This document shows positions 5,699 through 52,888 of a stretch of 64,000 nt of DNA, in pieces. The notes beneath the pieces are model-generated. The model was not told the DNA's origin. It made no database searches and saw only the letters and a program-made list of their open reading frames with translations. The position numbers and the translations under genes are program-made. Position 1 is the first letter of the stretch; each line of letters begins with the position of its first letter. The DNA is taken from positions 936 to 64,935 of the forward strand of contig CBDVCA010000002.1 in the NCBI GenBank assembly GCA_965372365.1. The letters are read 5' to 3'. Source of the DNA: an uncultured bacterium. GTDB lineage: Bacteria > Planctomycetota > Phycisphaerae > SM23-33 > FEN-1343.

Positions 5699-5761
5699 GA
5701 TCGCATCTCCCCGATTGTGGCCTTCCCCGTATTTCCTCGGCCGATCGGCATAATAGAGCAT

Positions 5762-5790
5762 CGGGGGCAGGTATTCAATACCCGCCCCCG
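5762..5790 (-). terminator. GC-rich stem-loop (about 12-14 bp stem) 40 nt downstream of the giant-gene stop; candidate intrinsic terminator or attenuator
   Basis: On the mRNA strand: CGGGGGCGGGUAUUGAAUACCUGCCCCCG, a near-perfect palindrome, followed by a U-containing tract (AUGCUCUAUUAU). Confidence 0.45.
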
Positions 5791-5828
5791 ATGGGATTCG
5801 CTATGACGATAGAGCTGGACGGGACCTA

Positions 5829-8800
5829 TCAGGGCATTGGAATATTCAGCCCCGTACCGCTCAGTGCGTCGAAGCTGTCGCCTGTCCACGCCGATGGGTA
5901 GCGGCGAGTCCAAGACTGCAGTTTCGGTTGATGCAATCGTCGAACGCGTCTGCGGTTCTCCAGTATGCTCGGGCGACGGTTGGCGGCTTGGACGGGGCCG
6001 ACGTCGGTTGTCTGGGCCTGTTCGGCGGCCAGCAGATCAACCGAATCGCCCAGAACCTTGGCCGGAGGAGCCATCATGGTCCCGAAGTTCTGTTTGAGAA
6101 GGACGAAGTCGTCAAGGTCAACTTTCTGATTGCCGTCGAAATCGCCTTGAGCCCAATTGGAGCCGGTCCCGAAGTTCCGCTTCAAGATGACGAAATCGTC
6201 CAAGTCGACGTCGCCGTCGGTATCGGCATCACCGGCCGTGGCCACGAGGATCTGCGCGGCGTAGTCGTCGCCACCGACGCCGTCGCCGTCGCCATCGAGC
6301 AGGTTCCCGGTCTCATCGGAGACACCCGCGGCGGCGAGGGTGATCGTGTAGTATCCGGCCTGCACGCCAAGGGACGACAGGTCCCACGTTGCGGTGTTGT
6401 TCTGACTGTCGTAGGTCAGGTCGCCCGGCGTCAAGCCCGACAGGTCCACCGGGGTGGAGGTGGTGTCGTTGTGGATCGACAGGTCGCCCACGTCGATCGA
6501 GGCCGAGACGTCCTCGTCGAAGGTGAAGGCCATGCTGGTCAACTCGCCCGGTCGGTCGAGCCCGCCGTTGCGGATCGTGTCGACCACCGTCGGCGACTGC
6601 TGGTCGCTCGGATCGACCATCACATCGAGCGACGCGGCTGCGGTTTCGACTGCATCCTCGGGCACGAAGACCTGCACCGTGTAGACGCCCGGCTCGGCCC
6701 ACGTGTGCGTGACCTGCACCTCGGCCAATACTCTCGGCCCAGGCCCGAACGGCCGGCCGTAATGGACGATCACCGAGCCGGGGGTGTCGAGCCCGTCAGC
6801 GGGGAGCCCGACGGCGACGTCATCGATCCCGTCGCCGTTGGCGTCGGCGCCGCCGGCGAGGAGATGGGTGGAGATAAGCGGCGTCCGCGTCAACTGGGCG
6901 GGGCCCATCTGGAACGGCGTGGTGTCCAGGCCGTCGCCGGAGCCAAGGTAGAGCAGCGTGATGCTGTCGCCGCCGGGCTCGTTGGCCGCGACGAGCAGGT
7001 CACCGAGGCCATCGGCGTTGAAATCTCCAGCCGAGGCCACCTGTCGGCCGAAGTAATTCGCGCCTTCGGGGCCGGTCAGCAGCAGGGGCTGCGGGTCCAG
7101 GCCGCCGGCGGAGCCGAAGTACACAAGAACCGTTCCGTCGCCAGGGGCGCCCAGTGCGACGTCGTCAAGCCCGTCGCCGTTGAGGTCGCCGAGGCCGGCG
7201 ACGCTCGCTCCGAGCATGACCGAGTCGGCCGAGCCCTCGAACATCTCGATCGGCCCGGTCAGCGAAGTGTTCGTTCCGGCGAACAGGCGGACAACGCCTG
7301 TGTGGACGCCGTCGCCGGCAGCCTCCAGCGGGGCTCCGATCAACACATCGTCGCGGCCGTCGCCGTCGACGTCGCCGGCGGCGCCGAGAGCGTACCCGAG
7401 GGCGCCGTTGGCTTGGTCGCCGGTGTAGGTCCAGGCCGGTTCGGTTGACAGGCCTGTGGCGCTACCGAGGAACAACTGAACGCGTCCGGCGCCGGCGATC
7501 TCGATGAGCGTATCGCCGACGATGATCTCGGTGGCGGCGTTCGGGTCCGAGACAAGTACGTCGTCGAACCCGTCGTTGTTGACGTCGCCGGCTCCTGCGA
7601 CCACCGTGGCGTTTTCGGCGTAGATTCCGTCGGTCAGCATCGGCTGGCCCAACGGCGAGCCGAACAGTATGAACACTTGGCCCTGTACCTGGACTTCGGT
7701 CATGCCCACTGTGCCGTCGGGGTAGACGATCGGTACGAGCCGGTAGAGGCGATGGCCGGGCGCCGAGATGGCGACGTCGCCGATTCCGTCGTTATTGACG
7801 TCGCCGGCCGCGGCCACCATTCGCCCGAACTGGGCGTTGTCCTGTGAGCCGTAGAAGGTGAAGGGCTCCGAGACGAATCCTTCGGTGGAACCGGCGTAGA
7901 TCTGCACTCGGCCGGCGTTGATGGAGTCTCCGTCGTCGTATCCGCCTTCGCCCACGATGAGGTCGGCCAGACCGTCGCCGGTGACGTCGACCAAGGCGAC
8001 CGACTGTCCGAATCGGCTGCCGATCCGGTCGGTAGTGATCATGTCCGACGGCCCCGCGAGCATCTCGGTCGGCGCCGGCAGGATCGGGACGCTGAGCGTT
8101 TCGGACGCTCCGTCTCCGTAGTTCACGGTTACGTCCAGGTCGCCGTCAGGATCGAATCGGCCGGTCGTGTCGGTGATGGTGATCGTGAACGTGACCTCCT
8201 CGCCATCGACGATGACTTCGCTGTCCGGCAGGATCTCGATATCCAACGTGTCGCCGGGGTTGATCAGGGCTACCGGCGATTGGATGTCGATACCGACCAA
8301 CTGGCCAACCACCACGTCGGTCAGCGTCAGGGCGCCGCCGGCTTGCAGCGACAGCATGCTCGAGTAGCGGTCGGTCAGCAGTTCCACGCTGCCGGCGATG
8401 ATGTCGCCGGGGGAGGTGACCAGGAGACTGCCGTCGGCCACAATCACGTTGGCCAACTCGACCGAGCCGACCGCGTCGATTTGCAGATCCCCGCGGCCGC
8501 GGATGTCGGCGTCGACGATGCCGACGTCGGTTCGCAGTACGACCCCGGTGTCGGAGGTTATGGTCAGCCGCTCGCCGCGAATCAACGCTTGGTCGCCGCC
8601 GAGGATGGTCTGGGCGGTCATACTGAGATTCAAACCTTCCAGGACGGTTCCGCCGTCGGCGTCGGAGGCGAAGCCGTTAAGCATCACGGCGTCGGTTGCG
8701 ATCAGTGTGGTGTTGCCGAACGTGTTATGGAGGGCGCCGTCGCCGACGAAGATGATGTTGCGTCCTTCGAGGGTCAGGTCGCTGTTGTACAGCCAGATGT

Positions 8801-11800
8801 TCGCCTCGATGATGATATCGTGCTCGGCGATGAGGTGCAGCGGCCCGTCGAAGAGCAGATCGTCGGCCGAGTCGATGACGATGCTCAGGCCGTCGGAGGT
8901 GAGCGTTTCGCCTCCGACGTTGGCGTCGGGCAGGTAGGCGGTCAGTCCGGCCGCCATGGTGAGGGTTCCGCCGATGACGGGGCCGTCGCCGGCTTCCATC
9001 GGAGCGATGCTTCCGACGTTCCTCGCCGCATCGAACAACGCGTCGCCGGTGGCGACGATGTCTCCGACCCTCACGTCGCCCAAGCCCGTCGCGACCAGCG
9101 TCAGGTCGCCGGTATCGACGCCGTCGGCGACGATCGTGCCGTCAGAGAAGACGGACAACTCGCCGCCGTGGACGTTTGTGGCGGTGACCGTGAAGGTGTC
9201 GACGCCTTCGGGGGTCACGTTATGCACGACCACACTGCCGGTGGCGTAGGTGTTGGCCATGAAGATTTCGGCCTGCGTGTAGAGCTCCGCTTCGCCGTCG
9301 GCGGCCACCCAGACCAGCGTGGCTTCCAGCAGGCTGCCCGGGGCGCCCATCACGGGGCCGGCGCCCGCCGAGAGCATGACCGTATCGGCTGAGACGTGGC
9401 CGCCGTCGATGATATAGAGCCCACCGTTGGCGGCGATCTCCACGACGCTGTGGCCGCTGATGCGACCGCCGATTTCGACGGCGTCGTAGCTCTCGATGTG
9501 TACGACGGGGGCGAACAGCCTGGCTTCGTCCAGGCCGGAGACGCCGCCGGTTGCCGCGATCATGTCGATTCGCATAGACGCCGAGATGGCGATGTCGGTC
9601 ATGCGAAGGTTGCCGGTGTCGAGTTGCTCGACCGGCAGCAGTCTGTCGCCGTTGTGGTAAACCTCGGTGAGCAGCGTGGGCGGCGTGACGTAGACTTCAT
9701 TCTCGTGCGACTTGGGATCGTCCAAAGCGATCTCGTGGGTCGGGACCTGATTGAAGATCGGCGTGAAGTCCAGGAACGTCACGAGAATGTCGTCACGTTC
9801 AACGACCTCGATCGCCAGGTCGGCGAGCGTTTGTCCGGGGTACAGTACGATGAGCCGGCCGCCGTCTTGGAGTTGGGCGGCGAGGTCGTCCAGGACGGTC
9901 TGGAAGCTGACGACGTGCTCGTCGTCTTCGGCGTCGCTGGTGAAGAACAGATCGGCTGACGCGAATTCCCGAGCGCTGTCGGCTTTGAGGAATCTCGCTC
10001 GGTAGTCGTCGACGGCGAACAGGTTGCTTTCGATCTCCACCTGTCGGGCCACGCCGGTGTCCTGTCGGATGTCGGTCACCGTCTGGGTCTCGACCTCGAC
10101 GAACGTGCGAACGGTGTAGGCGCCGTCGAAGACGTAGAACTCCGGCAGGGCGCCGGTATCCCATTGGTAGAGGGTTTCGAGGTCGTCGGTGGTGTCGCCC
10201 GGCGTGCCTTCGATGTCGTCGAGGCGCCGGTAGTAGTCCTGTCCGCCATCGGAGTACAGTGCGTGCTGGAGGATATAGAACAGGTCGTCGTCGATGGGCT
10301 TGGTTCCGTTGGCGTCGCGGAAGTAGGTTTGACCGGTTACCGAATGCGTGTAGAGGTAGTAGCCGGAGAACTCATCCTGGGCGACACGGTCGCCGGGATC
10401 TTCGGGCTCGTCGCCGTCCTTCAAGTCGAGGTCCAGTTCGACGTTTCCATTCACCAGCATGGCGTCGCCGGTCAGGCCGAGGGCCTCGATGGTGATGGTT
10501 GTGAGTCCGTCGCCGCCGAGCTGCGCCAATCGCAGATCGCTTTCCAACTGCGATTGCAGGACAAGCATGCCTTCCAAGTCGGTCTGGAGTTGTCCCAGGC
10601 GGTCGATGTCGAGCCACACGCCGTCACGATACCCGGCGGCTGTGTACTGGAGGTCGATGCCGTACTGCAGCGATTGCAGTTCGTGGGCCGCGACGAGATA
10701 GTCGACCTGGAGTTGCTGGAGGGTGACCTCGGCGCCGGCCAAGGCGGTGCGCTGGGTTCCCTTGGTCAGCAGGATGTCAGACAAGTTGCCCTGTATCGTG
10801 GTCTCTTGGGTGTCGAGCCCGGCCAGGACGCTGAGGTGGCCGGTGATATCGATGTTGTAGCCATCGGCGTCGTTCTGCAGGTAGCCCAATTGGAACGTGA
10901 AGTCGCCCTCTTGCTGGACCAGTCCGGGCTCGTCGGCCACGGCGCCTTGGAATTGGGCGTTCAGGTGGGTCCGTTGCGTTTGCAGGGGGGCCAGGTTGGT
11001 CTGGATATCGCCCAGATCGTACGGGAGCTCGCCGTGCGCCAGATCGATTTGTCCGACGACATCCCATCGCTCGGTGGACAGGTTCTGTTGCTGCATGTAG
11101 AGGTCGTTCTGCTGTACAGACAGTTGGCCGATCTCGTCCTCGAACATGCCGGTGGCGTCATTGATGAACCCCTCGATGTCCATTCGCTCGGTACTCAGGC
11201 CGCTCAATTGGACGCCGAGTGCGTCGCTTTGGGCCTGTAGCAGCGAGAGTTCGCCGCCCATGAGTTGCTGGGCCGAGGATAGTTCGGTTTCCAGGCTTTC
11301 GGTGGTCGCCGAGACCTGCGAGTACTGGGTCTGCAGCGGGGCCAACAGGTTGCTCAGACGCGTTTCCTCGCCGCCCAGCAATCCGTCGACGGTGTCGACG
11401 ATGCCCGTCACGGTGTTCCGGTCGGCGATGAAGCCGGCCTCGATCGACTGCAGATGCTGGAGGGAGTGGTCGTCGTATCCGATCATGTAGAGTTCGTACT
11501 CGATCACCGACGCCTGATCCTCCAGTTGCGTCTCGTCGGCGTACAGGCCCTGCAGGGTCACGTTGAGATCGTCGCGTTGGGTCATCAAGTTGAGGATGTA
11601 GTTGCGTTCGGTGGTCAGTGAACCCACTTGGCCCTGCCAGTAGCTTCGGTCAGACAACAAGTCGTTTCGCATCTCATCAAGGGCGTAGCGGTCCGTCGGC
11701 AGTTTCGGGTCGTATGCTCCGTCGCCGCCCTTATTCTTCATGAGCTGGTACGCCTGCGACGTTTCCCCGCTCTTGTCCAACTGCGTGAGCAAGACGTCCC

Positions 11801-14800
11801 GTAGCGACTCCAGATCCGATTGGCCGAGCTTAGCGAAGGTCCGCAGGAACAACGCGTCGGAGATCTCGCTCAATTCGATGTCGTACCCATCACCGAACTG
11901 GAGGTGTCCCAGGTTGAAGTACTCCCAGTCGATCGGGAAAATGTGGGCCGGCTTGGTCGGGTTGGGCTTGCCGCCGGAGCCGATTCGCTCCTCGACTTGG
12001 CCCAGCCAATACTGCAGGCGAGGCAGCATCGGGGATCCCTGGTACCCCAGATAGCGGTAGGCGACCTTGTAGAACTGCAGGTCCACTCTGTCGAGATTAT
12101 CGTTAATCGCCGCCACATAGCTATTCGCCTGGCTCAGATCGTATTCGACGGTCTCCAGCGGACGCTGCTGGTTCAGGCTGGCCAAGACCACGTTGAGAGC
12201 CGACTCGTTGTTGTAGATATCCTGCCAGACGATGTTCAGGTTTTCCCAGATCAGGTTCAGGTCCTGGGTCCAGACGATGGCGGTCTGAACGGTGGACAGG
12301 TCGCTCAGGATCGTCGACAGCATATCGAATTGGCCGAGCATGTTGACTTGGGACGTGATCGCCGGCGAGAGGGTCATCTGTTCCACATCGCCCATGTTCC
12401 GCAACTCTTCGTCGAGCACCGACGGGTCGGAGACGCCTCGCCACGTCTGGACGGTCTGGAGCGTTTGCTGGAGCGGGGAGATCTGTTGCCAGAGCCCCGA
12501 CAGTTGGGTTTGCAGGCTGTAGTAGTTCTCGTACCCGTCTACCGCGTTGATTGTCGACTGCATCGACGGGCTGAGCAGGTCGGCGTATTGCGACAGGCCG
12601 CGGACGCCGGAGTCGAGGGCGGAGAAGTCGGTCGTCCACTGCAGCCACTCGATCTCATAGGTCGCCATGCCGACTTGGCCTATGTCGTTGTTGACGATGT
12701 CGATGTCGGACTGAACCACGGTGTAGGTTCGCGTGGTGCTCAGGGCGCTGATGGCGTTCACCAGACTCTGGGTCAGCACGCTGTCGTACGTCGCCAGCGC
12801 CCGGACGCCCGGATCGAGGTCTTCGTACAGTTGCAGGCCCCACAGTATGTAGACGGCGTCGGCGGCGTTCTGCACCAACGTTGCCTGGTCATTGACGATC
12901 TGGATGTCGGTATCCACATTCGCCAACGACCGCACCTGCAGCGCCGCGATGACGTCGCTGACAGTGTCTCCCAGCAGGGCGGCGTGGTCGTCGCCCAGCG
13001 CCAGGAGCAGTTGGTCGATCACGGTGGGGTCGGTGACGCCCAGAAGGATGCTGATATCGTCGATCGCCGCTTCCATCGGGATGATCTGGGCGTCGAGGGC
13101 CGCGATCTGTCCGGGCAGGACGGTGATGAGATTCTGGACGATCGCCAGGTCGTCCTGCACGAAGGCCAGGTCGCCCTGGTTCTCGTAGATCTGCCATTGG
13201 AGTGACGACTCCTGGTTGGCCAGGTCGTACAACTCCATGGAGACGGTGTCGAACCCTGAATCGACGGTGGCCAGGAGGCGTCCGAGTTGATCGTCGCTGA
13301 GGCCCCCGAGATCCAAGGCGTTCAGCGCCCCCAGGTCGAGGGCGGCGGTCTCGGGGTTGATCCCCGTTGGCGGTACGTAGTTGGGGCGGCTGAGGATCTC
13401 GTCGTTGATGCCGGCTCTGACGGCGTCCAGCCCGCCCTGGAAGCTCTGGCTGTCGAGGATTGTCGTCTGGAGGTCGCCCAGTTGCAGCGTCAGGTCGGCG
13501 GTGTCGCCGCCGATCTGCCAGATCTGCGACTGTACGCCGCCCAGGAGGCCCTCGACGCTGCTCAGCAGCGACTGGGTCTGGTTACGCTGCTGGATGAGGG
13601 TCGCGTAGCCGGGCATCTGGTCGATCGTATCGGGCCAGGTGTCCTGCACGGCCAGCATGTCGCCGATATCGGCGAGCTGGAACTGAATCTGCTGGCGATG
13701 GATATCCAGCGGCACCCGGATCAACTGCTGAATCTGGCTGTCGAGAAGCTGGCCGAGGACGACGCCTTGGCCCGCTTCGGTGGTAACGCCCATCGCGGCC
13801 AGTCGCTGCCACGCGGCGACCGTGTCGATCTGATCCTGCAGATTCGCGGCCAGCGCGTCGAGCAACTGCTGCTGCTGGGAGAGCGTCTGGTTGACCACGC
13901 GGAAGCCGGGGAAGTTATCGGCCTCGCCGAAGAGGTTCACGTTGCCGCCGCTGCGGAGAGTGACCTCGCCCAGCGAACTGAGCTTCCCGGCCAGCGTCAA
14001 ACTGCTGGCGGCGTTGACCGACAGACTGGCTGCGTCCAGGTCGACCGGCCGGCCGAGCGAACTGATCGTGCCGAGTGTCTGGAGGTCCAATTCGCCGCCG
14101 GCCCTCACGTGTCCGGTAATCACCAGATCGGCGTCCGGGGTGAGTGTGATCAGTGAGACGCCGGCTCCGGCGACGAGCGAGTTGGCCGCACCGTTGGACT
14201 CGACGTACAAGCTTCCCAGTTGCGACTGGAGCGTCAGTTCGGCGCCCAGACCCGGCGCCAGCGCCCGTCCGACGATCAGCCCGTTCTGAGCGGCCACGAA
14301 GACCGAGCCGAGGTTCGCGTTGACCATCCCGACCCTGACGCCCGGGGACATTTCGCCCACGCCGTCGACGTCGAGAATCTCCACCAGACTGCCGTCGATG
14401 GAGTTGGCGATCGTCACCTCGTTGACGGCCGTCATGAGGCCGGTGATCGAACCTCTGGCCATCGCCATCAGCGTGCCGGCGACGATGCTCGGGGCGGGGC
14501 CTTCTCCGGCTTCGGTGGGGATGGAGAACTCGCTGATCGGCAGGGTGAGCCCGCCTCGAATCTCGCCGTCGGCGAACAGTTGGACGCGGCCGGCGGAACT
14601 GAACTCGCGCGAGAACGTGAACAGATCGCGTGCTTCGCGTTCGACGGTTTCGGGGTCTGCGCCTCCGAAGGAGCCCTCGTACGCCAGGCCCAACAGCCCC
14701 AGCACCTGCGAGTACATCGTGAAGGCGACGCCGGCGGTCATGTAGGCGCCGTTGGCGGTGAAATCGCTGATCGCGATGGCCCGCAAGTCGCCGGGTTCGT

Positions 14801-17800
14801 CTCGCACGTCGTTCTCGAGTTCGACGAAGGTGATGGGCAGGCCGAACTCGTCCAGGATGGGCTCGCCCGCCGAATCCAGCAGCGTCGAGATGAACTCGGC
14901 GGGGATGCCGGCCGGATCGATCTGGCGCAGGAGGCCGTTGAGCATTTCAAGTCGAATCGCCTCGGCTTCGGCGTCGTCGGCGGCGTACACGCCGCCGGTG
15001 ATCGAGCCGACGGTGATCGTCCCGCCGCTGCCGCCGGTGGTCTGGAGGCGAATGACGTTCGCATGAGGCGCGGCGCCCGACGTATTCCAGTCGGTCAGCA
15101 GTGTGACGTTCTGAGCGTCGATGTCGCCTGCGTTGACGATGGTGATATCGCCGTCGAGGATCTGCACGTTCGACAACACCAGGGCGCCGACCGAACTGGT
15201 CACGGTCAGGTCGCCTTCGGTCCCCACGTCGATGTTCAACGTGTTGGCTTCGGTGGTCAGCGTGGTCGGCCCGAAGGTGCGAACGGTCAATTCGTCGGCG
15301 ATGACGGCGCCGTCGGGATGGGTCATCTGGCCGTAGACGGTGAGGAACACGTCGGCGCCGCCGGCGGCCTCGATATCGTGAACTTCGAGCGTGACGCCGG
15401 CGAGGCCGATGGCTTCGGCGATCAGCGTGATGTCGTTATCGTCGGAGCCGCCCAGCGAGCGGATCTCGGTGGCGATGACGCCGCCGCCGATCGCCGAAAT
15501 GGTGATCGGCCCATCGGCGGTCTGAACCTGCGTAAGCGTCAGCCCGGCGGTATCGGGGCCGTCGCCGCCGGCGAGACCGACGATGTCGCTGTCCTTCAGG
15601 ATAATGGCGCCCGGGCCGGTGACGACGGCGCTGACCTCGGCGACGTGGAGGTTCTCCAGCGTGATGCTCCCGCCGGCGATCACGCCCAAGGTGACGGCGA
15701 CGAGGCGTCCGCCGGTGCCGGGGGCGTCGTCTTCGGTCGGCGCCATCTCGGCCGCGGCCTGGATTACTTCGCCGGCCGGGGCCGACAAGGTAATCGTGGC
15801 GGCCTGCAGTTCGGCGTCGATCAGCGAGATGTCCCCGGCGATGCTTCCGGCGGTCAGTGAGATTGTGCTACCGGCGCCCGACGCCAGCAGGAATCCGCCG
15901 ATGGTCGGTCGCAGATCGTCGTCGCCAAACATCGTCTCGGGCGTCGCGGCCGGATCGTGTATGTACACGCCGCCGGCGCCGTCGGAACCGGCCTCGACGG
16001 AAACGCCCTCCAACGCCTCGATGGCGGTGGTGATGATGACGTTGTCGCCGGCGGTGACGGCCACGTTGTCTCGGGCGAAGATGGCCCCGTTGATGACGAT
16101 GGCTCCGTCGGCGTCGATGGAGATGTCCTGGACGGGGTCGCCGTCTTCGGCGGGCGCCTCGGCTCCGAGGGTCCGCAGTTCGGCGGTTTCGCCGACGGTG
16201 ACGGCGCCGGCCGCGGCGTCGATATCGATCGCTTCGTCGGCATGGAGGTGGATCATGTCGTAGACCTTCGGGTCGACGGGCATCGGCTCGCCGACGACGA
16301 TCGATCCGGCGGCCGAGTTCACCGTAATGGCCCCGCCGGGGGCCGAAGCGTCGATGCCGGCCCGAACGAGGATGTCCGTCCCGGCGTTGATGTCGATGTC
16401 GCCGGAGGCCGACAGCGTGTCATGATCGAAGATCGACAGTTCGGTCAGTCCGTCGGCGGCCACGGCGCTGCTGGCGTAGTCCAGTCGCTTCTCGGTGGTC
16501 GCGACGTATCGCCAGTTGGTGATCTGCTCCATCTTGATGACCGGTACGATGCTCTCGATGGTTTCGTAGAGCGGACGCTTGTCGACGATGTCGTGGGCCT
16601 GGGTGAACGCCCGGTAGGTGATGTTCGTCCGCACGTCTTCGATGTCCCGCCAGTCGGTGGTCATCTTGTAGATATAGTCGTGCTGGGTCTCGCCGGTATC
16701 GTAGGCCGGAAGACTCCAATCGGGCTCGCGCTCGTAGACGGCGTGAAGCTCCTCCACGCCGTTGAGATCGTTCCACAGCCCCGAGGTCCACATCTGCAGG
16801 TGGTCTTCGTCGTTGTAGGGGCCTGCGTTGTTGGGCTCGTTCGGGTGGAAATTACTGTAGCCTGTCCAATTGGCGATCCAGCCGTTGGCGACCCGATCCA
16901 TCGACCAGGAGTCGTGGCTGAGGCCGTTGATGTTGTACCCGCCCAGCCAGACCGGCGAATCGATCATGTCGCGGACCAGGTCGTTCTCGGCCTGATCGTT
17001 GATCACCACCAGATGCCAGGGCCAGGAGAAGAGGGCGTTGGCGTCGTCCCAGTCGTACATGTAGTACGACAGGTAGTAATCCCTGCCCTCGAATCGGCGG
17101 ACGTTGGCCACGTCGTCCTCGTGCCTCGCCGAGTCGTTGAGGAGTTGGAGGTTGATGTTGGCCTGCTTGACGGCCACGCCGGCCTCGGCGTCGCCGGGGT
17201 TGATCTGGGCGTACACCCGTCGTCCGAACATGTCTACGTCGTACTCCCAGTTGCCGCCGGTGAACCCCGAGACGTTCCCGTACTCGTCGACGGTTCCGGC
17301 GTCGCCGAGGTTCCAGTCCTCCGGTAGCCAGTCGACTTTCACCGAACTGTCGTAGGTCGTCGCCGGCAGATAACCCAGGCCGTCCATCAGGAGCGTCTGG
17401 ATGATCAGGTTGGTCTCCTCGGAGGCCGCCTCGGTGGAGAAATTCGCGGCGAGCAGTTGGAGCAAGCCCGTGTAGACGCCGGCCACATTTGGCATCGACA
17501 GTTCGTTCGCCGACCGCCCGTCATAGATGCTCCACTGCTCGTAGGCGGTCGGGTCGTCGTCGGTCCAGACGTTGTGCGGGGTGTCCCTGTAGGTTACGAC
17601 CCACCGGCCCGGTTCGTTGTCGTAGTCTTCCAGCACCCACAGGTCACCCTCGACGGGGTTGCTGGGGGCGCCCTCGGTCAGCGAGGACCACTCCTGGATG
17701 TATTCCAGTTGTGCGACTTCGCGAACCTGGCCGACCAACTCGTACTCGTTGATGGTGTTGCCCACGAACTGCAGCTTCTTGGCGTCGGATTCGACGCTGT

Positions 17801-35800: not shown

Positions 35801-38800
35801 CGCCGGACTCGGCGCCGAGAAGATCTTCCAGCGATATCTCCCCGCTGACGACCAGCGGACTGCCGTCGAGGGCGTCGACGGTGATCAACTCGGCCGCTTC
35901 GAGGGCCGCGACCGAAATCATCGTCGTCGGGTCGAATTCGTTGCTGCCGATGAAGCCCATCTCCAGCAGGTCACGCAGTGTGTACGTGCTGGCGTCGGTC
36001 AGCAGGTCGAGGCTGACGTCGATAGCGTCGGAGACCTGGTCGGTCACGACCATGATCTCGTCGCGCTCGGTGCGAAGCGTGACGCCCAGGGCGATCAGTT
36101 GCGAAGCGGTAATCAGCCGCGAGCCGATCAGGTCGTCGTAATCGATGTACTGCCCGGCGGTGAGATCGCCGGCGTCGACCAGGTCCAAGTCGATCAGGTC
36201 CATCAGGCCGACATTGACCACGTCGGTGTTGATGAGGTCTTCGAGCGATACGTTGCCCCCCGAGACGATCCCGCTACCGTCGAGTGCGTCTTCGTCGATG
36301 GCCCCGAGGCTCTCCAGCGTGGCGACCGACAGCAGGGCGCCGCCATTGAAACTGGCCAGCGTGATCAGGTCGAAATCGACCAGATCACGCACGTCGATCA
36401 GCGACATATCCAGCATGTTGTTGAGGATATCCAGCTTGGGCAACTCGAAGTTCGGGTCGATGGCGCCCAGTTCGACGAGCGTTTCGAAAGACGCCTCACC
36501 GAGATTCTGTAGATTGCGAAGATCGAATTCGTGCAGGTTGAAGTCGAACAGGCTCGGCAGGCGGAGGATCTGGGTTTCGGGGTCGAAGGAGATTTCGACG
36601 CCTTCGGGGAGGATGCCGGCGTCGGAGAACTCGCGGATGAAGTCCTGCACGCTGCGGATCTGGGCGGGGTCGATCTTGCTGAGAATCTTGTCGTTGAACG
36701 CCGTCGCGAAGTCCAGCAGGTCGCCGAGGTTCTTGTTGATCAGCGGGATCTCGGTCTGCATGAAGTCGGCGCCGCTGAGGCTGTCCAGCCAGTTCAGCGT
36801 GCCCTGTAGCATGGCGATGAGCGTGCCGATGTTGAAATCGCTGAAGTCCAGCAGGCGGTCGAGGTTTTCGGTGGTGAACTCCAGCGGCGGCGCGCCCGCT
36901 GTCGGGAACAAGGCTCCCTCCAGCCCCACACGCGGCGTACCTTCGGCGGTGCTCCCCAGCGCGACCCCGCCCAGTTCGGCGTAGATGGGCAGGTCGGCGT
37001 GGACGGCGTTGCCGGGTTGGCCGCCGACTTCGTCGAACAGGCGGAATGCGATATCGGCCGCCGAGAACAGCAGGTCGCCGCGGGCCAGTTCGGTTGCGTT
37101 GTTGTACGAGAGCCGTCCGCCGAGGGTCAGGGACATCTCGCCCTTCTCGGCGTCGATGTCGCCGATTCCCACTTCCAGCGGGCCGACGGTGGCGCCGATG
37201 ATGAGGTCGTTGACCGAGCCGGTGGCGGTGAAGTCATAGTGGTCCAGTTCGAAGCTCACGTCGCCGCCGCTGGACCAGTCGAACGTCAGCTTCGCCTCGA
37301 CATCCTGGGTGATATTCAGGTCCAGCGTCGCGTCGCCGTCAATCGCCAGGCCGATGTTCTGGGCGCCGGCGCCGAGGTTGATGCCGACCGATCGCTCGAA
37401 CGGCATGCTCGTGGCGAAGGTGATCTCGATCGCGTCGCTTCCGATCAGTTCCCAACTGAGGGCCCCGGCCTCGCCGCCGAGGGTGGGCAGCCAGTTCTCT
37501 TGCAAGTACTGGAAGAACCCGCCCATGGTGGGCGCCCCGCCGCCGTAGTAGTCGGTGTCGCCCTGCCCTAGCGGGATGAGCGGATCGCGGACGAAGTCGC
37601 CCTGGTCCATGTGGGGGTTGAGGTAATGGCGAACGAAGTGGCCGATATTGAGGATCGAGCCGATACCCAGCACGCCGTCGAGGGTAATATCGGTTCCCGG
37701 GAGCGTGTCGGAGAGGAAGCTGCCCGAACTGATCGCCTCGCCGGTGGCCGCGTCGTATTCGATGACCAGGTCGCCGCGGAGGTCGATAATCGTCGAGCCC
37801 AGCATATCCATCGCGAGGAAGGCCAACTCGTCCAGGATGCCGCTGATATCCCGCAGGTCGGCGTCGAAGCCGGGGCTCAACTGGCCGTCGAAGAAGTCCG
37901 TATCGGCGAACGTCACCGTTGCCAGCGGCACAGCCGCGCCGCCGGCGCCCAGTTCCAGCGGCAGCGAGATGCTGACCTGGTTGGTGTGGACGGCGGCGCC
38001 GTCGCCGTTACGGATCGAGTCGAACCCGAACGAGCCGTCGTCGTAGGTCACCGTACCGCCGATATCGAGAGAGAGGCTGCCGCCGCCGTCGGTGCTCAGC
38101 TCGATGCCCTGGTAGCTGACGCCGAGGTCGATTGTGCTGGTCGAGAAGGCCCCGTCGAAGCCGAATTCGTCGAAGTCGAACGTGAACTCGCCGGTCGACA
38201 GGTTCACGCCCATGCTGAATTGCAGCAGCGTCGAAAGGGCGATGTCGGCGTCGAGGGAGCCGATCAGCGTAAGGCCGACGTCGCCGAGGTCGGTTCCGAC
38301 GTCGAGTGAGAAGTCGTCGTTGAAGCTGTAGCTGCCGTCGAAATGGATGGTGAGCTGGTCGCCGACGATGCTCGGTGTGATAAACCCGCCGCCGAGCCCC
38401 GCCCCGATGCCCGGCAGGGTGGGTACGTAGTGGGCGGTGAGGAACGTGACGAGGTCGTCCCAGATTTCCGTCGTCGTAACGCCGCCGTCCTGTACGGAGT
38501 CGACGCCGACCCAGTTGATTTCGTCAAGGTAGTCGAAGAGGTACGAGTCGATATCGAGCAGGGCCTCAAGCCCCGAGGCGGTGGGGACGTCGCCGAGGCC
38601 GTTGTCGTTGCCGGCGCCGAAGAAGCTGTCCAGCGAGCGTCCCGTGCCCGGCAGTTGGATATCCAGCAGTCCGGCATCCAGGAGGCCTTGCTTGAGGTCG
38701 CCGATGACGCCGGCGAGGTCTTCCAGCAGGCTTCGGATGACGCTGTTGGCCAGGCCGCCGAGGCCGCCGACGATATCGGGGGAATTAATCAGGATCGGAT

Positions 38801-41800
38801 CGTGGGCGCCGGGGGTTGCGCCGAACAGGTGGCGAAAAACCTCTTCCAGGCCGGTATTGGCCGTTCCGCTGCCTACGGGGGTGTTGGCGTAGGCGGGGTT
38901 GGAGCGGATCCACAGCGGCCACGTACCCAGGCCTTCGAATTGCGTGGTGACGCCGAACAGGTCCATCTCCAGCGGCAGCAGGACTTCGAACCCGCCGTCG
39001 ACGCCGGTGAAGATCACGTTATCGCCGAGGAGGGTCTCGCTGAAGCGGTACAGCCCGTCGTTGGTGACGCCCGTGCCGGGCTGCTGCTGGAGTTCGAAGG
39101 TGATCGTCACGAAGTCGGAGTGGTCGTCCGGGTCGCCCAGTTCGGGGTTGGTGGTCGAATCGCCGTCGGCGTCGATGGTGATGGCCGGATGGTAGAGAAC
39201 CGGGTCGAGGACGCCGTTCTCGTCGAGGTCGAACTGGGCGTTATCGAAGGTCGACAGGCCGATCGAATCGAAGATACTGAAGCTGATATCGAGCGATTGC
39301 CCCAGCACCTTAAAGCCGGCCGCGACGCGAGTGCCTTGCTGGAGCGGGGCGTCCCAGTCGTACAGGAACACGTCGACGGGCTGTCCGTCGGCGCGTGGGC
39401 CGAGGTCGACGCCGGCCTGGATCTTCAGTTCGGCGAAGGCGCTGAAGACCAGTTCGCCGGCGGCGTTGATCGAGACGAGATTATCAAGACCGGCCAGTCC
39501 GCCGGGCAGTCCGCCCGCCATCAGCCCCGCCAGGGCTTCGAGGTCGAAGTTGAACGGGACGGTTTCGGAGATGTCCTGGTCGAGGTTCAGGCTGAGCCGC
39601 AGGATGTTGCCTTCCATGCGGACGCCAAAAATGTCCGAGTCGGTATTGATATCGAGCCCGAGGACGTCCATCAGCATCCCGACCAGCGCCTGAACGTCGT
39701 TACCCGGATCGTGCAGGAACCGTTCGACCTTCGTCACGGCGTCTTCGAGATCGGTGATGACGCTCAGTAGTTCGGCGGGCGACTTGTTGATGATCGGCAG
39801 CTTCATATCCGGCAGCAGTTCGTACAGCGGCGACTCGGCGTCGGTCACCCAGAACGGCAACTGGTCGATCGCGTCGCGTACGTAGTCCCTCGCCCGCAGC
39901 AGCATGCTCATCAGGTCTTGGAGCCCGAGCAGTTCGCTGACGCCGAAGACGCCCGGCAGGTCTTGCAGATCAAGGGAGATGTAATTATCGTCGCTTTTGG
40001 ACAGCGACAGGTCGTCGACGCTCAGGACGATTTGTCCGCCGTGACCGATCGGGATGCCGCCAAGGCCGGTGTTGACCTTGATGCCGCGGAGCGTGGCCCG
40101 GGCCTCGCCGGTGGTTTCGACGACCCATTCGTCGTCGTCGGCGCCGGTGATCAGTTCGGAGACGAGGAACTGGCGGTCGCCGGTGGTGGCGAGGGCGCCG
40201 TCGGCGTCCAATACGCCGGTGCGGGTGATGTCGACGTGTACGAGGCTCTGGAGCCCGGCGACGTCGGCGAGCGTTACGCCGATGAATCCCAGGCGAGCGG
40301 CGACGTCCAGATCGCGAACGTCGAAGCCGACTTCGCCGGTAGCCGCGGCGTCATCGACCCACCACGTCAGCCCCTCGCTTCCGGTGGGGCCGTCGATGTC
40401 GGCGATAAGATCGAAGGTGGCCGCGGCGGCCGCGCTGATGTCGGCGACGGCGTCGGTGACCATGCCCACCAGGTCCAGGCCGTACTCGCCGGCCAGCGAG
40501 ATCGTCTGGTCGCTGAGGCCGAAGACGTTGGCGTCGTGGCCGTTGACGTCGCGAGGGGTGATCAGGCCCATTTGGGCCAAGTCCGCCGCCGAAAGCAGCG
40601 GCTCGTTATCGCCGGCCATGATCGTATCGATCAGGTCGTCGAGGTCGACGTGATCGTTCTCGTCGATCAGGCCCGAGTCGATCAGTCGCGCCAGCGGCAC
40701 GGGGGCCAGGTCCAGCGCGTCGTAGTCGACGGCGCCCAGGTCATCGAGCTCCGCTCGGGGGATAATCGCCTCGCCGGTGAGGCTGACTCCGTCCAGTTGC
40801 CCCTGCGTCGCCAGGCCGGCGTTGATGACGCCTTGGGTGCTGATCGTCACGTCCAGCAGGTCGGCGGCGACCAGGTCGGCTTCGGTGACGGTCTCGCCGG
40901 TGGCGGCGGTGTAGGCGCCGGCGGTCAGGTCGCCGGCGGCGACCGTAGCGGTCACCAATCCCGCTTGGGCGAGGGCGGCCGCGGAGATCAGTTCGCTGGC
41001 CAGCAGTTGGCGCGGGTTGATCGAGGCGCCCGACATGCCGGCGGCGGTGAGGGCGGCGTCGGCGACCAGTCCCGGGCCGGTCAGATCCGTACGGGTAATA
41101 TCGGCGCTGAAGAACCCGTACATGCCGAGGTCCGCAGCCGTAATCAGGTGCGACTCGGGATCGCCGCCATCCAGCAGCGTCGCCAGCAGTGCAGCCAGTG
41201 GCTCGGCGGTGAAGACGCCGCTGTCCACTTCGTCTTGTGTGGCCAGGCCGGTATCGACGAGTTGATCGCCGGTGAGCAGGTTCAGCGCGATCAATTCAGC
41301 CAGATCGACGGTCGCCTCGACGAGGCCGGCGTCGATGAGATCCTGCGCCGTCGCCAGACCCGACCCCAGCAGATCGGCGATGTCCACGCCGGTCGAGTAC
41401 AGGCCGTTGTCGATCAGGAGTTGCTCGGTGATGCCCAGCCCGGCGCCGATCAGATCGTCCTTGGCGGCTCCGCTGCGGAGCAGCTGGTCCAACGTGACCA
41501 GTTCCGACTCGATCAGGTCGGCGATCGCCACGTCGCCGGGCGCTACGCCGGCCGATTGCAGTTGCCCCAGCGTAACCAGCGGCGAGCCCACCAGCGCCTG
41601 CAGCGGCACGCGTCCGCTGCGGTCGTCCAGCGAGTTGTCTCGCAGTTGCTCCAGCGTGACCACGCCGGCGGTCAGCAACTCGGCCAAGTCCACGTGCGTA
41701 CCCAAGAGCCCCGCGGCCACCAGTTGCGACGCCGTCACCAGCCCCGCCCCGACGAGGGCGGCCGTCGCGACCGTGTCGAGCCCGTTGATGGCGTCGGCCG

Positions 41801-44800
41801 TCGCCAGACCCAGGTTCACCAGCAACTCCGGGTCGCCCAGATCGTCCAGGTCCATCGCCACGGTTCGCTTCAGACCGTCCAGACTCACTTCGGTCACCGT
41901 CAGGTCGCCCGGTTGGACGAGCCCGGCGTCGAAGAGTCCGCCGGGGGTGAGCAAGTGGATCACGCCGGCGTCGTACAGGTGCGTATCGGCGACCAGATCG
42001 AGCGAAAGCAGATCGTCCTTATCGACCGTCGCGGCCGGGTTGAAGTGGGACGGATCGATCACGCCCGTCCAGACGAGATCATACAGGTGAGCCAGATCGT
42101 CGCCCAGCAGGCTGGCGGCTCCGTTGAGGACGACTTCGTCGCCGACGATTACGCCGGCGGCGTCCAGCAAAGTCTGGTCGAGTACGTCGGCGTCCAAGAC
42201 GTCCTCGGTCTGCCGTGCGATTACCGACGCGGCCAAGTCTCCCGAATCCACCAACCCTTCGTCAATCAGCGACTCCAGCGACACCAGCCCCGATTGCAGC
42301 AGCGCGTGCAGCGAAACGTTCCCTTCGTCGATCAGCCCGTTGCCGGTCAGCGCCACCGACGTCGTCAGTCCCGACGTCGTCAGATCCGTCGCGGCCATCG
42401 CGATATTCTGGAAATGCCACCTAGCCAAAATCCCCTGATCGACCAAGTCTCCCAAGCCGGCGAAATTGCGGACGATCAGGTCGTTCACATCGACCAGTCC
42501 CGCCGCGGCGAGGTCGCCGATGTAGTGGTCTTCGACCACGTCGTACAGCCGAACCTCGTGGGCGCTGATGAAGTTGTTCAGGTCGCCGGGCTCGAACAGG
42601 CTCGACGCTTCGAGGTCGCGGATATCCAGCCCGATCGCCTGGTCGGCCAGGTCGGCCTCGGAGATGAATCCGGCGTCGATGAGCGAGGTGAGCGTTACGC
42701 CGGGAAGATCCAGCGTAAGCAGGTCGTACAGGTTGACGATCGGCTCGCGGTCGGCCGGTACGTCCACGCCGAAGTCGGCTTCGATAGTGGCCGCGGTCAG
42801 CGGCGCATCATCGAAATCGAAGTGCGTGAGGAATCCGGCGTCGATGAAGTCGGTCAGCGTGACGGTGAACAGGATCGAGCCCAGCAGCGTGTCCTCGGCG
42901 GCCACCGCGCCGTGAGCGACCAGCGGGGCGTTGCCTACGTGTACGACGCGGTCGAACTCGCCGTCCTCGAACATCGGCTCCCCGCCCAGCAACATCGCTT
43001 CCAGGACGCTCTGTTCGAAGACTTTGTTAATAAACGCGTCGGCGCGGAGCACGCCGCCGGCGACCAGCGACGCGAACGACAGATTCGGGTCGGTCAGCAG
43101 CGCCTCGATGAGGATGTAGTCGTCCATCCCCGCCACTTCGCCGGCAAGCCCGTTGTCGTCGACATATTTCTGCCCGACGGCGTTGGACTCCAGCAGGTCT
43201 TCGAGGCTCACGCGGCCGTCGACGAGCAGATCGCTTGCGGTCACCAAACCCACGTCGACCAGGTGTCGCAGGGAGACGGCGCTGTCGTCCCACAGGTCGG
43301 TCCATCGCGTCAGGCCGCTCCCGACGACGGTTTCCAGGTCGGTCAGCCCCGATGCCAGCAGGTCTTCCAGGTCGACCGTATCGCCGGTGACGCCGTTGTC
43401 GGTGAGGGCCTTGTTGCTGACGGCGTTGGTCGACAGCAATATCGCCAGCGTAACGGCGGTCGTCGTCAGGGGGGCGCCGGCGAGCCAGCCTTGGGCGGCC
43501 GCGTCGGAGAGGCTGAGCAGTTCGAGGTCGAGCAGGTCGTCGAGAGAGGCGATCCGGTCGTTGGGGCCGCCCGCCACCTGCAGCAGGGCGTTGTCGTCCA
43601 GCGCCCGCGGCGAGACCAATCCCGACGCCAGCAGGTCGTGTTCGCTGACGGTCACCGCGCTGAGGTCGAAGTCGCTCGCCGTCAGAACCCCGGCGTCGAT
43701 CAGGTCGCTGGTGCTCGCCAACCCTGCGCCCGCCAACGCGGCCGGCGAGACGATATCGACGCCGGCGGCGTTCTGGGTAACGTGCGGGGCCAGCAGGCCG
43801 GCGCCGATGATATTGGACGCCAGCAGGTCGTCGCGGTCCACGCCGCCTTGGACGAAGATCTCGTCCAGCGTCGCGTCGCCCAAGTCGGCCAGATTGTCGT
43901 TGGTCAGTAGCCCCAGTTCGTGCAACTGTTGCACGGTGACGGACGTACTGGCGACCAGGGCCGCGATCGATACGGTGTCGCCGTGGTCGATCAGCGACAG
44001 GTCTTGGAGGCTTTGAACGGTGGCCGCGTCGAGCCCCACGACGTCCAGGTCCACCTGGCCGAGGTCGTTCAGGTCGGCTACGTGGAGTTCGCCGAGCGTG
44101 ACAAGGTCTTCAATCGTCAGCAGGCTCGACTCGATCAGCGCCGCGGCGCCGAGGCGTTCGAGCAGGTTAGTGTCGAGCAGGTTGGTCGCCAGCAGGTCGG
44201 TTCGCGTGACGGTTCCCAGGTCGGGGAGGTCTTCGTGGGTGATGAACTGGAAGTAGACCAGGTGCCTTAACTGGATGGGGCTGTCGGCGAGGAGCGTGTC
44301 GAGGTCGATGATCGACCCGGGGCCGATGAGGCCGCCGTCGGCGATAATGTCGGTGAGAAGATCGCCGGCGACGTCGGCGATTTCGGAGGTCTTCCAGGCG
44401 TCCAGTATGGCGTCGGCGGGGCCGAGGATGCTCTGTCGGGCCAGATCCTCGAGGGTCATCAGGGTCGAGTCCAGCAGCGAGCGGATGGGCAACTGCTCGG
44501 TGATCAGATCGCGGAGGTCGACCAGGGATCCGGAGACCAGATCGGCCAACGTCGCGGCTTCGGAGTCCAGCAGTTCGTGGACATCCAGAGCGTTCAGCGT
44601 TAGGTCGGCTACGTTCAACAGGCTGCGGTTCACCAGTTCGGCCGCATCGAACAACGCCGCGTCCAGCACCTCAGACAGCGCCGCCGTCGTCGGTAGGAGG
44701 TTGCCGACGGTGACGAGGCCGGCGTCGAGAAGCTCCAGCAGGTCGACGATTCCCTCGTTCACGATCTGATGCAGCGAGACGGTTCCGCCGTTGACCAGCG

Positions 44801-47126: not shown

Positions 47127-47877
47127 GGCAAGCTCGACAAAACGAATGCGGCGACCCGGAGGGGGCTGATGTTGCCCCGGTAAGAGGTGACCGTAACGAA
47201 GTGACGAACCTGCCTTGACCTACAGGTTACGGGACCCCCCGAAAGAGCGCGACGTCAAACCGTCGCATGCCCCATCGAATACAGGAACCCGCCGCGTCTT
47301 GCTCCAAGCAAGCCGGCGCTGCTCCCGAATGGATCCCGATCGCATGGCATATCTTACGCGCATTTGGCGAAATCCAGTGCTGCATTCCTGGGCACATTGG
47401 GGCTCTTTGGTGTAAGTCCAGAGGAGATATACATGTAGGAGGGGGCGGAAAACGCCGTTCGCCTCGCCGTTCGCTATCGGAGCGGTCTCAGTGTCTCTGT
47501 TGAGGATCTTATCCGTATAAATGACACTGGTTTACCGGACTTTGAGCCGTGACGATGTGAGGACCCGATTCACAGATGAAGTATGCTTCGAATCGTCGAT
47601 TCCAGCCCCTTGGCGATCCGCATGAAGCCTTCGGCCCTATCACCCTCCCCCTCAAAACTCCGAATTCTCCTAGTTTGGGTTCGTTTGATTTCTTGCCTGC
47701 CAGTCCGTCTCTCCTTTCTACTCTCTCCGTTCTCCTCTCTATGCCGCCCTGCGGCATCCCCCCCCTCACTCTAATGGCGCGTTTCAGAGGTATCCCCCGT
47801 TCAGCCGGCCGGATTAGCTTGACGAGCGGGTGGGTCGCCGTAGGTTGTCGGCCGTATCGGGGTCGTGAATAGGGCAA

Positions 47878-49313: not shown

Positions 49314-49484
49314 GCTGGTTGCGGCATCGGTTGGCGGCGTCCGTTTCCATCGCCATAGCAACGGCTATGGCTGCTTCAACGTCCTTGCCAGCCTCGTCCT
49401 CACCGACGCCTGAACACGACATCTATTATGCAAAGTGCTCTAGCCAGGCCATACGGTTCGTTCCTTACTGTGGAGCGAACCATT

Positions 49485-52784: not shown

Positions 52785-52888
52785 GTTTGGCTCTCGACGC
52801 GACCAATGAGTATACCGTCGATTATACACCGTCCACACGTATCGACTAACGTGTTCCGACCCCAAACAGTGCAGAGGATGCGACCCGA

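Follow-up and report, generated by a model that had tools for sequence, protein, structure and literature searches.

A 41-kb planctomycete gene for a probable calcium-stabilised, lectin- and propeller-bearing giant extracellular protein of the LEPR-XLL class

The 64-kb stretch of DNA analysed here (the window; positions 936 to 64,935 of contig CBDVCA010000002.1, from an uncultured planctomycete) is dominated by one giant gene on its minus strand. As a preliminary description of this DNA had noted, the open reading frame (ORF) is unbroken over 41.3 kb, with a single terminal stop codon, and specifies a product of 13,765 amino acids (aa) and ~1.45 MDa. We consider it probable that this product is a megadalton, Ca2+-stabilised extracellular fibre or adhesin, bearing a lectin domain and a propeller, exported without a Sec signal and belonging to the LEPR-XLL class. 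The gene, its terminal features and its recognised domains are arranged as follows in protein order.

5829..47126, minus strand: whole ORF, ATG at 47126 and stop ending at 5829; 13,765 codons plus the stop.
46962..46994, minus strand: LEPR-XLL motif, FEALEPRLMLS, aa 45-55 (NCBIfam NF012209, 20.5 bits against a cut-off of 17).
31071..31484, minus strand: RTX beta-roll block of six nonapeptides, aa ~5215-5352 (Pfam HemolysinCabind, 4.2e-9; partial match to NF033943).
16707..17084, minus strand: cysteine-free C-type lectin-like domain (CTLD), aa ~10015-10140, with EPN at aa 10097 and WND at aa 10118 (Pfam Lectin_C, 13.2 bits).
6717..8030, minus strand: integrin-alpha-type FG-GAP propeller, aa ~13033-13470 (Pfam FG-GAP, 4.8e-25).
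6618..6788, minus strand: PKD-type immunoglobulin (Ig)-like domain, aa ~13447-13503 (Pfam PKD, 24.8 bits against a cut-off of 23.5).
6297..6599, minus strand: weak Big_5-like Ig domain, aa ~13510-13610 (Pfam Big_5, 18.6 bits, below the cut-off).
6087..6236, minus strand: dockerin-type double F-hand, aa 13631-13680, with two halves, DADTDGDVDLDDFVILKRNFG and DFDGNQKVDLDDFVLLKQNFG, visible at aa 13632-13682.
5832..6086, minus strand: C-terminal tail of 85 aa with an RRRVRR cluster, within the net-basic last 90 residues.
5759..5793, minus strand: perfect 16-bp, GC-rich hairpin, 36 nt past the giant stop codon and overlapping the ATG of the downstream GT87 ORF.

The 41-kb gene is real, intact and constrained. 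Its GC content (guanine plus cytosine) measures 64.9% over the ORF, below the 67% first given for the genome, and 66/42/87% by codon position, a pattern that identifies the ORF as a real coding sequence of a GC-rich genome; the third-position value (GC3) is similar to that of the flanking genes. At the base composition of the ORF the probability of 13,765 stop-free codons is ~10^-147, and the longest stop-free run in 20 shuffled versions was 526 codons, so the claim that the frame is not open by chance holds. The ORF already begins at the most upstream start codon possible. Tandem Repeats Finder detects only eight tiny arrays, and the internal protein repeats revealed by self-BLAST are 20-47% identical. 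Because near-identical internal DNA repeats are absent, collapse or expansion of repeats during assembly is unlikely. An exact residue count likewise bore out the acidic, nearly cysteine-free composition with few basic residues: the lone cysteine is residue 38, near the N terminus as first noticed, Asp (10.8%) and Glu (5.1%) make up 15.9% of the chain, Lys (1.02%) and Arg (2.96%) make up 4.0%, and Leu makes up 11.7%. The isoelectric point is 4.05 and the net charge ~-1,650, spread evenly along the chain (-46 to -79 per full 500-aa block, -25 in the 265-aa end block); only the last 90 residues are net positive (+5).

Long plus-strand ORFs overlap the giant gene between 5928 and 45770, the longest (1,330 aa) at 39918-43910. 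Comparable plus-strand ORFs elsewhere in the window have high first-position GC and lower GC3, as in shadow frames, and the antisense ORFs are most likely non-coding by-products of the 87% GC3. ARAGORN places a 92-nt tRNA-Asp (GTC) on the plus strand at 30771-30862, antisense to the giant ORF and just past the RTX block in protein order. Rfam at gathering thresholds returns no tRNA or other RNA family anywhere in the window, and the tRNA call is probably a false positive.

Orthologues of the giant protein were found on three other contigs. In a scan of one genome per species the sole relative was on contig CAYLPJ010000003.1 (L002), from a metagenome-assembled genome (MAG) of an uncultured Planctomycetaceae; it aligns as one collinear segment (aa 43-3817, ~3,783 aa) at 60% identity, and its frame is open to the end of the fetched locus. 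A 140-kb long-read metagenome contig (L003; ENA ERZ21869602 ctg93666l) is collinear with aa 2657-10745 at 42-64% identity over ~8,000 aa, and a third, shorter contig (L001) matches at 43-47% identity, with a contracted version of the 11-residue repeat array (R1) described below. Comparison with the L002 orthologue by the Nei-Gojobori method gave pN 0.255 and pS 0.462 for nonsynonymous and synonymous differences and a ratio of the corresponding substitution rates (dN/dS) of ~0.43. This pairwise estimate, which is probably inflated by the strong GC3 bias, indicates purifying but relaxed selection of a kind common in surface proteins, and with the collinear orthologues it agrees with the earlier claim that the gene is intact and under selection. 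The L003 orthologue is divided into five consecutive ORFs on the same strand (3569, 881, 1650, 1722 and 6357 aa; 14,179 aa in total) within positions 1-25169, whose ends overlap or abut; the split may reflect indel errors of long-read assembly or a genuinely disrupted copy. The last of these ORFs bears Cadherin_4, Cadherin_5 and Big_9 matches, which the window protein lacks.

Close relatives are rare. Among 5.8 billion clustered proteins, aa 1-460 has one match, and a 1,001-aa query from aa 5400-6400 also has one, the L003 orthologue. A metagenome scan with the C-terminal 766 aa returned generic FG-GAP propellers only (26-39% identity) and no C-terminal orthologue. On a further contig (L004, Ga0209521_10000286), positions 86-2758 match aa 10334-11257 at 37% identity and positions 10001-11542 match the FG-GAP propeller, ~7 kb apart; a giant protein more distantly related, with other sequence between the two parts, may be encoded there.

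The N terminus of the giant protein consists of a 44-aa hydrophilic leader without a hydrophobic core, followed by the LEPR-XLL motif. The Kyte-Doolittle maximum over the first 80 aa is 0.99. The motif is kept in the orthologues L002 and P0001. Across aa 1-460, Pfam, NCBIfam and the PDB give no match besides LEPR-XLL.

Database-recognised domains account for ~6.7% of the residues, leaving ~93% without any. The RTX block matches CyaA, lipase and AlgE structures in the PDB. Six blades of the FG-GAP propeller are detected, each with a DxNxDGxxD Ca2+ loop (loops between aa 13109 and 13428), no seventh blade could be made out, and the propeller matches integrin alpha chains in the PDB with E values down to 3e-13. 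The CTLD reads HLVVINDQAENDLV ... VWLGG ... YSNFHPNEPNN ... DEDHLQMWTSGLWNDL, with every canonical cysteine replaced, and both EPN and WND are kept in the L003 orthologue. In Pfam alone (Lectin_C, PF00059) this domain is sub-threshold (13.2 bits against a cut-off of 22.6, E 0.15). A profile made from the window and L003 sequences matched 69 PDB chains, and all those listed have the C-type-lectin fold. The best match was CLEC10A (E 1.9e-4, positions 3-112 of 132), in which QPD aligns to EPN; others were CD23, collectin-11, MBP-A, SP-D, langerin and E-selectin. Because the only cysteine of the giant protein is residue 38, the CTLD is, on its sequence, a disulfide-free C-type lectin variant. By analogy with characterised lectins, the EPN triplet is expected to confer Ca2+-dependent specificity for sugars of the mannose, N-acetylglucosamine (GlcNAc) or fucose type.

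Pfam and PDB matches thus confirm the RTX and FG-GAP calls of the preliminary description, and the two-sequence profile secures its CTLD call, which Pfam misses. Its dockerin call is upheld in part, with two F-hand halves visible but a Pfam score below the cut-off; type I dockerins consist of two such segments of ~22 residues, in each of which a Ca2+ loop precedes a helix. It had also held that the domain mix is not that of any characterised giant adhesin, and none with such a mix was found.

The remainder of the chain is made largely of modules that match no described family, and the self-similar blocks without a database match agree with the novel tandem modules first proposed.

45777..46934, minus strand: module A, aa ~65-450 (self-BLAST; no Pfam or PDB match).
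40527..45779, minus strand: R1 array, aa ~450-2200, Leu/Asp-rich, with an 11-residue period xLxDLLxxGLx grouped into ~34-aa repeats.
38427..40529, minus strand: module B, aa ~2200-2900, with a copy at aa ~3800-4520 (self-BLAST, 24-42% identity; no Pfam match).
33567..37790, minus strand: A-R1-B super-module for the second time, aa 3113-4520; its R1 array is short (aa ~3430-3850).
27777..30929, minus strand: central stretch of highest conservation, aa ~5400-6450 (identity to L003 up to 64%); the first R2b units, of beta-helix type, begin at aa 6086.
22671..27776, minus strand: R2, 12 copies of a ~100-120-aa alpha/beta module, mostly in tandem, aa 6451-8152.
21027..22526, minus strand: beta-helix-like stretch, aa 8201-8700, with the pattern GxIxIxAGxDIxV and copies of R2b found by hidden Markov model (HMM).
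20247..21029, minus strand: array of short DxxGxLIDxxG repeats, aa 8700-8960 (weak DUF3659 match, 21 bits, below the cut-off).
13947..16526, minus strand: beta-helix-like stretches, aa 10201-11060, paralogous to aa 12700-12990 and 8640-8750.
10827..13739, minus strand: heptad-periodic Gln/Leu-rich region, aa ~11130-12100 (autocorrelation at lags 7, 14 and 21), with repeats R5 and R6.
8247..9329, minus strand: beta-helix-like stretch, aa 12600-12960 (self-BLAST and sequence pattern).

The A-R1-B super-module of aa ~65-2900 is partly duplicated at aa 3113-4520, with module A recurring at aa 3113-3500 and, more weakly, at aa 2800-3066. R1 has a lag-11 autocorrelation of 0.29-0.33 and 29 HMM copies, and a PDB profile search with it gave no match. 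An AlphaFold2 model of a 293-aa R1 segment, informative for secondary structure only, alternates ~6-residue helices with ~5-residue loops. The run of R2 modules, with the consensus ...DVTL.L...VTI.A.DT..NTS.ADL..DIN.ALAA...G.L.F.S..F.....N..LLGL, is interrupted at aa ~6662-6874 by units of the R2b type. R2 has no match among PDB sequence profiles or in Pfam. Its core is modelled with block-mean predicted local distance difference test (pLDDT) scores of 80-95, mostly ~90, in a beta-beta-alpha-beta-beta-beta topology, and the model bears a modest resemblance to the flagellin outer domain. The GxIxIxAGxDIxV pattern occurs also at aa 9000-9200. In the heptad-periodic region, paired ~150-aa repeats recur at a spacing of 201 aa, and windows with a lag-7 autocorrelation of at least 0.15 contain 7-13% Pro plus Gly; these residues probably form a coiled coil or helical bundles. 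A helical segment of ~1,100 aa had been proposed at first, and periodicity and composition alone support it, at aa ~11130-12100. Orthologue-assisted PDB profile searches with aa 43-3817 and 7523-10745 found nothing besides the CTLD, and a permissive Pfam pass over ten tiles without annotation gave only noise-level matches, Lectin_C excepted.

The R2 module places the giant protein in a wider class. An exhaustive profile search recovered 427 cluster representatives among 1.84 billion proteins, 126 of them with E <1e-10. Many R2 relatives are 4,000-7,800 aa long with several R2 copies each, and 42 of 158 are at least 3,000 aa; those that carry names are called 'Ca2+-binding RTX toxin-like protein' or 'hypothetical', one of them from a Verrucomicrobiota MAG. 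Their median composition (Cys 0.03%, D+E 13.6%, K+R 5.4%) and frequent RTX nonapeptides are those of the giant protein's class, and ~30 of them start with a 25-60-aa hydrophilic, mostly basic leader without a hydrophobic core, followed by (F)E.LEPR.LLSAD. The acidic, cysteine-free composition is therefore typical of the LEPR-XLL class and not special to the giant gene. R2b accompanies R2 in 44 relatives; no relative has R1, the helical repeats or the CTLD, which by this sequence comparison are private to the orthologue group of the window. The best R2 relative is P0004 (NCBI MEM2990727.1; E 1.7e-175), an incomplete protein whose 1,199 aa contain nine copies of the module and whose 3.6-kb contig was binned as 'Halobacteria archaeon'. 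Because the other R2 relatives are distributed in the Planctomycetes-Verrucomicrobia-Chlamydiae (PVC) bacteria, that contig is probably mis-binned.

Proteins of this size are uncommon, yet more than the handful that the preliminary description allowed: after filtering, the pool of longest BV-BRC proteins still counted 7,478 sequences, none shorter than 10,624 aa. Giant genes are characteristic of Planctomycetes. The largest one in a 2016 survey measured 36,239 bp, and genes >30 kb were confined to the Planctomycetaceae Fuerstia and Gimesia. Judged by that survey and by the L002 orthologue, the giant gene would most likely derive from the same family. A 2025 review describes planctomycete giant genes for proteins of >10,000 aa with surface and calcium-binding roles, and the 'huge proteins' of the phylum are enriched in HemolysinCabind and Dockerin_1 (Amaral and Devos 2024). 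The LEPRxLL motif, a mark of giant proteins in several phyla, is reported in Chlorobium chlorochromatii proteins of 36,806 and 20,647 aa and in a Vibrio RTX protein of ~8,000 aa.

The flanks of the giant gene encode an SNF2 helicase, a UbiA-type prenyltransferase, a GT87 glycosyltransferase, a 1,275-aa unannotated ORF, a major facilitator superfamily transporter, NuoF-like Fe-S oxidoreductases, a BamB-like protein and a polyprenyl synthase. No synteny was found between these flanks and those of the orthologue loci, and the window contains no TolC- or SapC-type neighbour and no cohesin. The hairpin past the giant stop codon is a probable terminator; because it overlaps the annotated ATG of GT87, that start codon is doubtful. 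A role for GT87 as an operon partner that glycosylates the giant protein was considered and rejected, given the strong hairpin across the GT87 start codon.

Upstream of the giant gene lies a non-coding stretch of ~1.3 kb, in which no sigma-70-like promoter was found. It contains two exact tandem copies of a 76-nt unit (48124-48199 and 48200-48275) and an inverted, 98% complementary copy at 47875-47939; together these may represent a small repetitive element or form a regulatory structure. Next on the minus strand, at 48404-49361, are two neighbouring short ORFs (159 and 167 aa) with a GC3 like that of coding sequence. Their cysteines are clustered, as in CGHCCSGPEEGYVW and CTACGRCCDF, and the products resemble paralogous Cys-cluster (Zn/Fe-binding) proteins. 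The 1,275-aa ORF (49485-53312, minus strand) has no Pfam or NCBIfam match and no homologue beside the L002 orthologue. Its first ~175 residues are rich in Arg, Pro and His and seemingly not genuine; if translation began near Met176, the product would have hydrophobic segments at its N terminus and, behind them, a large soluble part.

The recognisable domains of the giant protein are all of Ca2+-dependent extracellular type and suggest an extracellular location, in keeping with the surface protein of the preliminary description. Since the protein has no Sec signal peptide and essentially no cysteine, the chain is predicted to leave the cell unfolded and independently of Sec. It might take a type-I-like pathway, C terminus first, whose genes lie elsewhere in the genome or, alternatively, an undescribed route that would use the N-terminal LEPR-XLL region. 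Outside the cell it would fold and stiffen on binding Ca2+, a prediction made because of its extreme acidity, RTX beta-roll, six FG-GAP calcium loops, dockerin and lectin domain. Folded, it may form a very long modular filament composed of two 11-residue-period helix-loop arrays, twelve R2 modules resembling the flagellin outer domain, several beta-helix-like shafts and a coiled-coil-like region of ~1,000 residues. Binding would be the task of the distal third, in which the EPN-type CTLD may recognise mannose-, GlcNAc- or fucose-type sugars via Ca2+ alongside the integrin-like propeller, and through the dockerin at its C terminus the protein would be anchored to a partner of cohesin type.

Several observations weigh against this fibre or adhesin model. 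Besides the missing Sec signal, no convincing transmembrane (TM) helix and no C-terminal sorting signal were recognised in the giant protein, and its RTX block is small and lies 8,400 residues from the C terminus, unlike that of type I secretion system (T1SS) substrates. Secretion genes, whether for ATP-binding cassette (ABC) transporter, membrane fusion protein (MFP), TolC, T1SS or other components, are absent from the ten flanking ORFs of the window (a reach of 17 kb) and from seven ORFs on the upstream side of the L002 orthologue, a region that encodes pyruvate dehydrogenase E1 and E2. Two of the C-terminal domains are weak, the Big_5-like domain being below its cut-off and the dockerin scoring 16.8 bits in Pfam Dockerin_1 (PF00404) against a cut-off of 22.9. 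On the structural side, the R1 model is unreliable (pLDDT 52), a Foldseek search with the R2 fold returned nothing significant beyond the modest flagellin resemblance, and the beta-helix and coiled-coil assignments derive from sequence pattern only. With ~93% of the chain outside any recognised domain, functions not yet seen, enzymatic or toxic ones included, are possible.

The main rival is a classical T1SS RTX adhesin of the LapA, MpIBP or SiiE kind, exported C terminus first through an ABC-MFP-TolC channel, retained by an N-terminal plug and extended as a repeat rod whose ligand-binding domains sit close to the tip. Acidity and a low cysteine content are typical of T1SS substrates. An acidic, nearly Cys-free chain with an RTX beta-roll and no Sec signal fits such an adhesin, as does the position of the CTLD and propeller in the distal third, and Vibrio LEPR-XLL proteins have C-terminal RTX and serralysin-type domains. 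The sole RTX block at aa 5215-5352 is, however, not C-terminal; the last 730 aa instead comprise FG-GAP, PKD, Big_5-like and dockerin-like domains and a basic tail. ABC, MFP and TolC genes are missing from the window and upstream of the L002 orthologue, and neither Pfam nor NCBIfam detects a LapA-type retention module or a rod of bacterial Ig-like (BIg) repeats. We regard a classical T1SS adhesin as unlikely, while T1SS-like export from an unlinked locus is possible. The remaining alternatives are less likely still. A non-adhesive structural polymer of the envelope or its appendages (holdfast, stalk, crateriform-structure fibres or matrix scaffold), whose lectin and propeller bind glycans of its own cell, would have the same filament-type architecture. 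Reviews place planctomycete giant proteins in cell-surface structure, and envelope genes for GT87 and the UbiA-type prenyltransferase adjoin the giant gene. The strong hairpin before GT87 argues against a simple operon, the flanks are not syntenic with those of the orthologue, and public data contain very few members of the family, fewer than expected if it were a core component of the envelope; we find this role doubtful, and a shade more so than T1SS adhesion.

Far less credit attaches to a contact-dependent effector or polymorphic-toxin carrier (CdiA-, MARTX- or Rhs-like), in which a beta-helical or coiled-coil shaft would deliver a hidden payload. Beta-helix-like stretches and a long helical region do recall FhaB/CdiA-type shafts, ~93% of the protein offers room for a payload in being unannotated, and LEPRxLL giants of Chlorobium chlorochromatii have been reported to transfer between cells. 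Yet Pfam, NCBIfam and PDB sequence and profile searches found no two-partner secretion (TPS) domain, haemagglutinin repeats, autoprocessing protease, toxin domain or Rhs/YD core. Haemagg_act and Fil_haemagg, diagnostic here of the TPS/CdiA-FhaB type, are absent from all Pfam tiles, and that type gave no PDB profile matches. The C terminus carries binding-type domains rather than a variable toxin, and no small immunity-like gene follows the stop codon, making this carrier highly improbable. That the ORF is non-functional, as an assembly chimera, a decaying open pseudogene or a gene never expressed, is scarcely credible. The five-way split of the L003 orthologue would suit it, but the breaks fall at ORF overlaps, as expected of indel errors in the L003 assembly, and the frame itself combines a vanishing chance of staying open (10^-147), a GC3 of 87% like that of its neighbours, no near-identical repeats to mis-assemble, collinearity with three independent assemblies and a dN/dS below 1.

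A calcium-stabilised, lectin- and propeller-bearing extracellular protein of this kind is of interest because no planctomycete giant protein has been characterised, although such proteins are a hallmark of Planctomycetes and metabolically very costly to make. The giant gene is a clean example, intact, with collinear orthologues and free of near-identical repeats, so that its modules can be studied singly. Handles for such work include the disulfide-free EPN/WND lectin domain, the R2 module, which has no Pfam family and recurs, with its partner R2b, in ~400 other giant proteins, the private ~2,000-residue array of 11-residue period, and the LEPR-XLL N terminus, which bears on how megadalton proteins without a Sec signal are exported. 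More speculatively, and as a long shot, the hydrophilic leader and LEPRxLL(SAD) might together act as a recognition signal that directs megadalton, Cys-free, Ca2+-folding proteins of PVC bacteria and other phyla into an export or sorting pathway not yet described. The window protein would then be among the largest cargoes of that pathway, a micrometre-scale, lectin-tipped fibre built of folds largely without a solved representative (a ~2,000-residue helix-loop solenoid of 11-residue period and the R2/R2b pair).

Among known systems, the T1SS RTX adhesins (LapA of Pseudomonas fluorescens, MpIBP of Marinomonas primoryensis and SiiE of Salmonella) share with the window protein an acidic, Cys-poor chain without a Sec signal, Ca2+ dependence (predicted here), a long repetitive extender and distal sugar- or ligand-binding domains. 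They differ in their C-terminal arrangement of RTX repeats and secretion signal, where the window protein has a small internal RTX block, and in their nearby T1SS genes, retention module and BIg-repeat extender, none of which was detected here. The dockerin-type giants of Omnitrophota (West-Roberts et al. 2023 preprint) come from a PVC-related lineage and likewise combine great size, calcium-binding dockerin or EF-hand-type elements, large unannotated regions and predicted regular, repetitive architectures; a role in attachment has been proposed for them. At 30,000 aa or more, with many dockerin and thrombospondin-3 (TSP3) repeats and C-terminal TM anchors, they contrast with the window protein, whose single dockerin-like unit is accompanied by neither TSP3 repeats nor a TM segment. 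The CTLD resembles animal EPN-type C-type lectins (collectins, MBP-A and langerin) in its almost whole-domain profile match and in the order of its WIGL-like VWLGG, EPN and WND motifs. It differs from them in lacking structural cysteines, in its place inside a 13,765-aa bacterial protein and in its score below the Pfam threshold, and its sugar binding is predicted.

The planctomycete giant genes of Fuerstia marisgermanicae and Gimesia maris are similar at the level of annotation, in exceeding 30 kb, in HemolysinCabind and Dockerin_1 and in presumed surface and calcium roles. At 41.3 kb the window gene surpasses both the >5 kb length criterion for giant genes and the 36.2-kb maximum of the 2016 survey, and it lacks the Cadherin and Big_9 repeats typical of them, ~93% of its product being unannotated. 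Closest are the LEPR-XLL giants (NF012209, 'LEPR-8K'), recognised by an N-terminal signature of ~24 aa, which share the motif within the first ~50 residues after a leader without a hydrophobic core, and are giant, acidic and nearly Cys-free, with RTX-type calcium repeats and no recognised transport signals. In the window protein, the leader before the motif is not basic, the body consists of R1, R2, a Cys-free CTLD and helical repeats, the C terminus is FG-GAP-PKD-dockerin rather than RTX/serralysin or MtxA-like, and the TolC- or SapC-type neighbours of the class are missing from the window. The giant gene thus represents a new orthologue group, and a variant in architecture, among the known LEPR-XLL/RTX/dockerin calcium-binding giants of PVC bacteria, and it extends that class without overturning current views of it.

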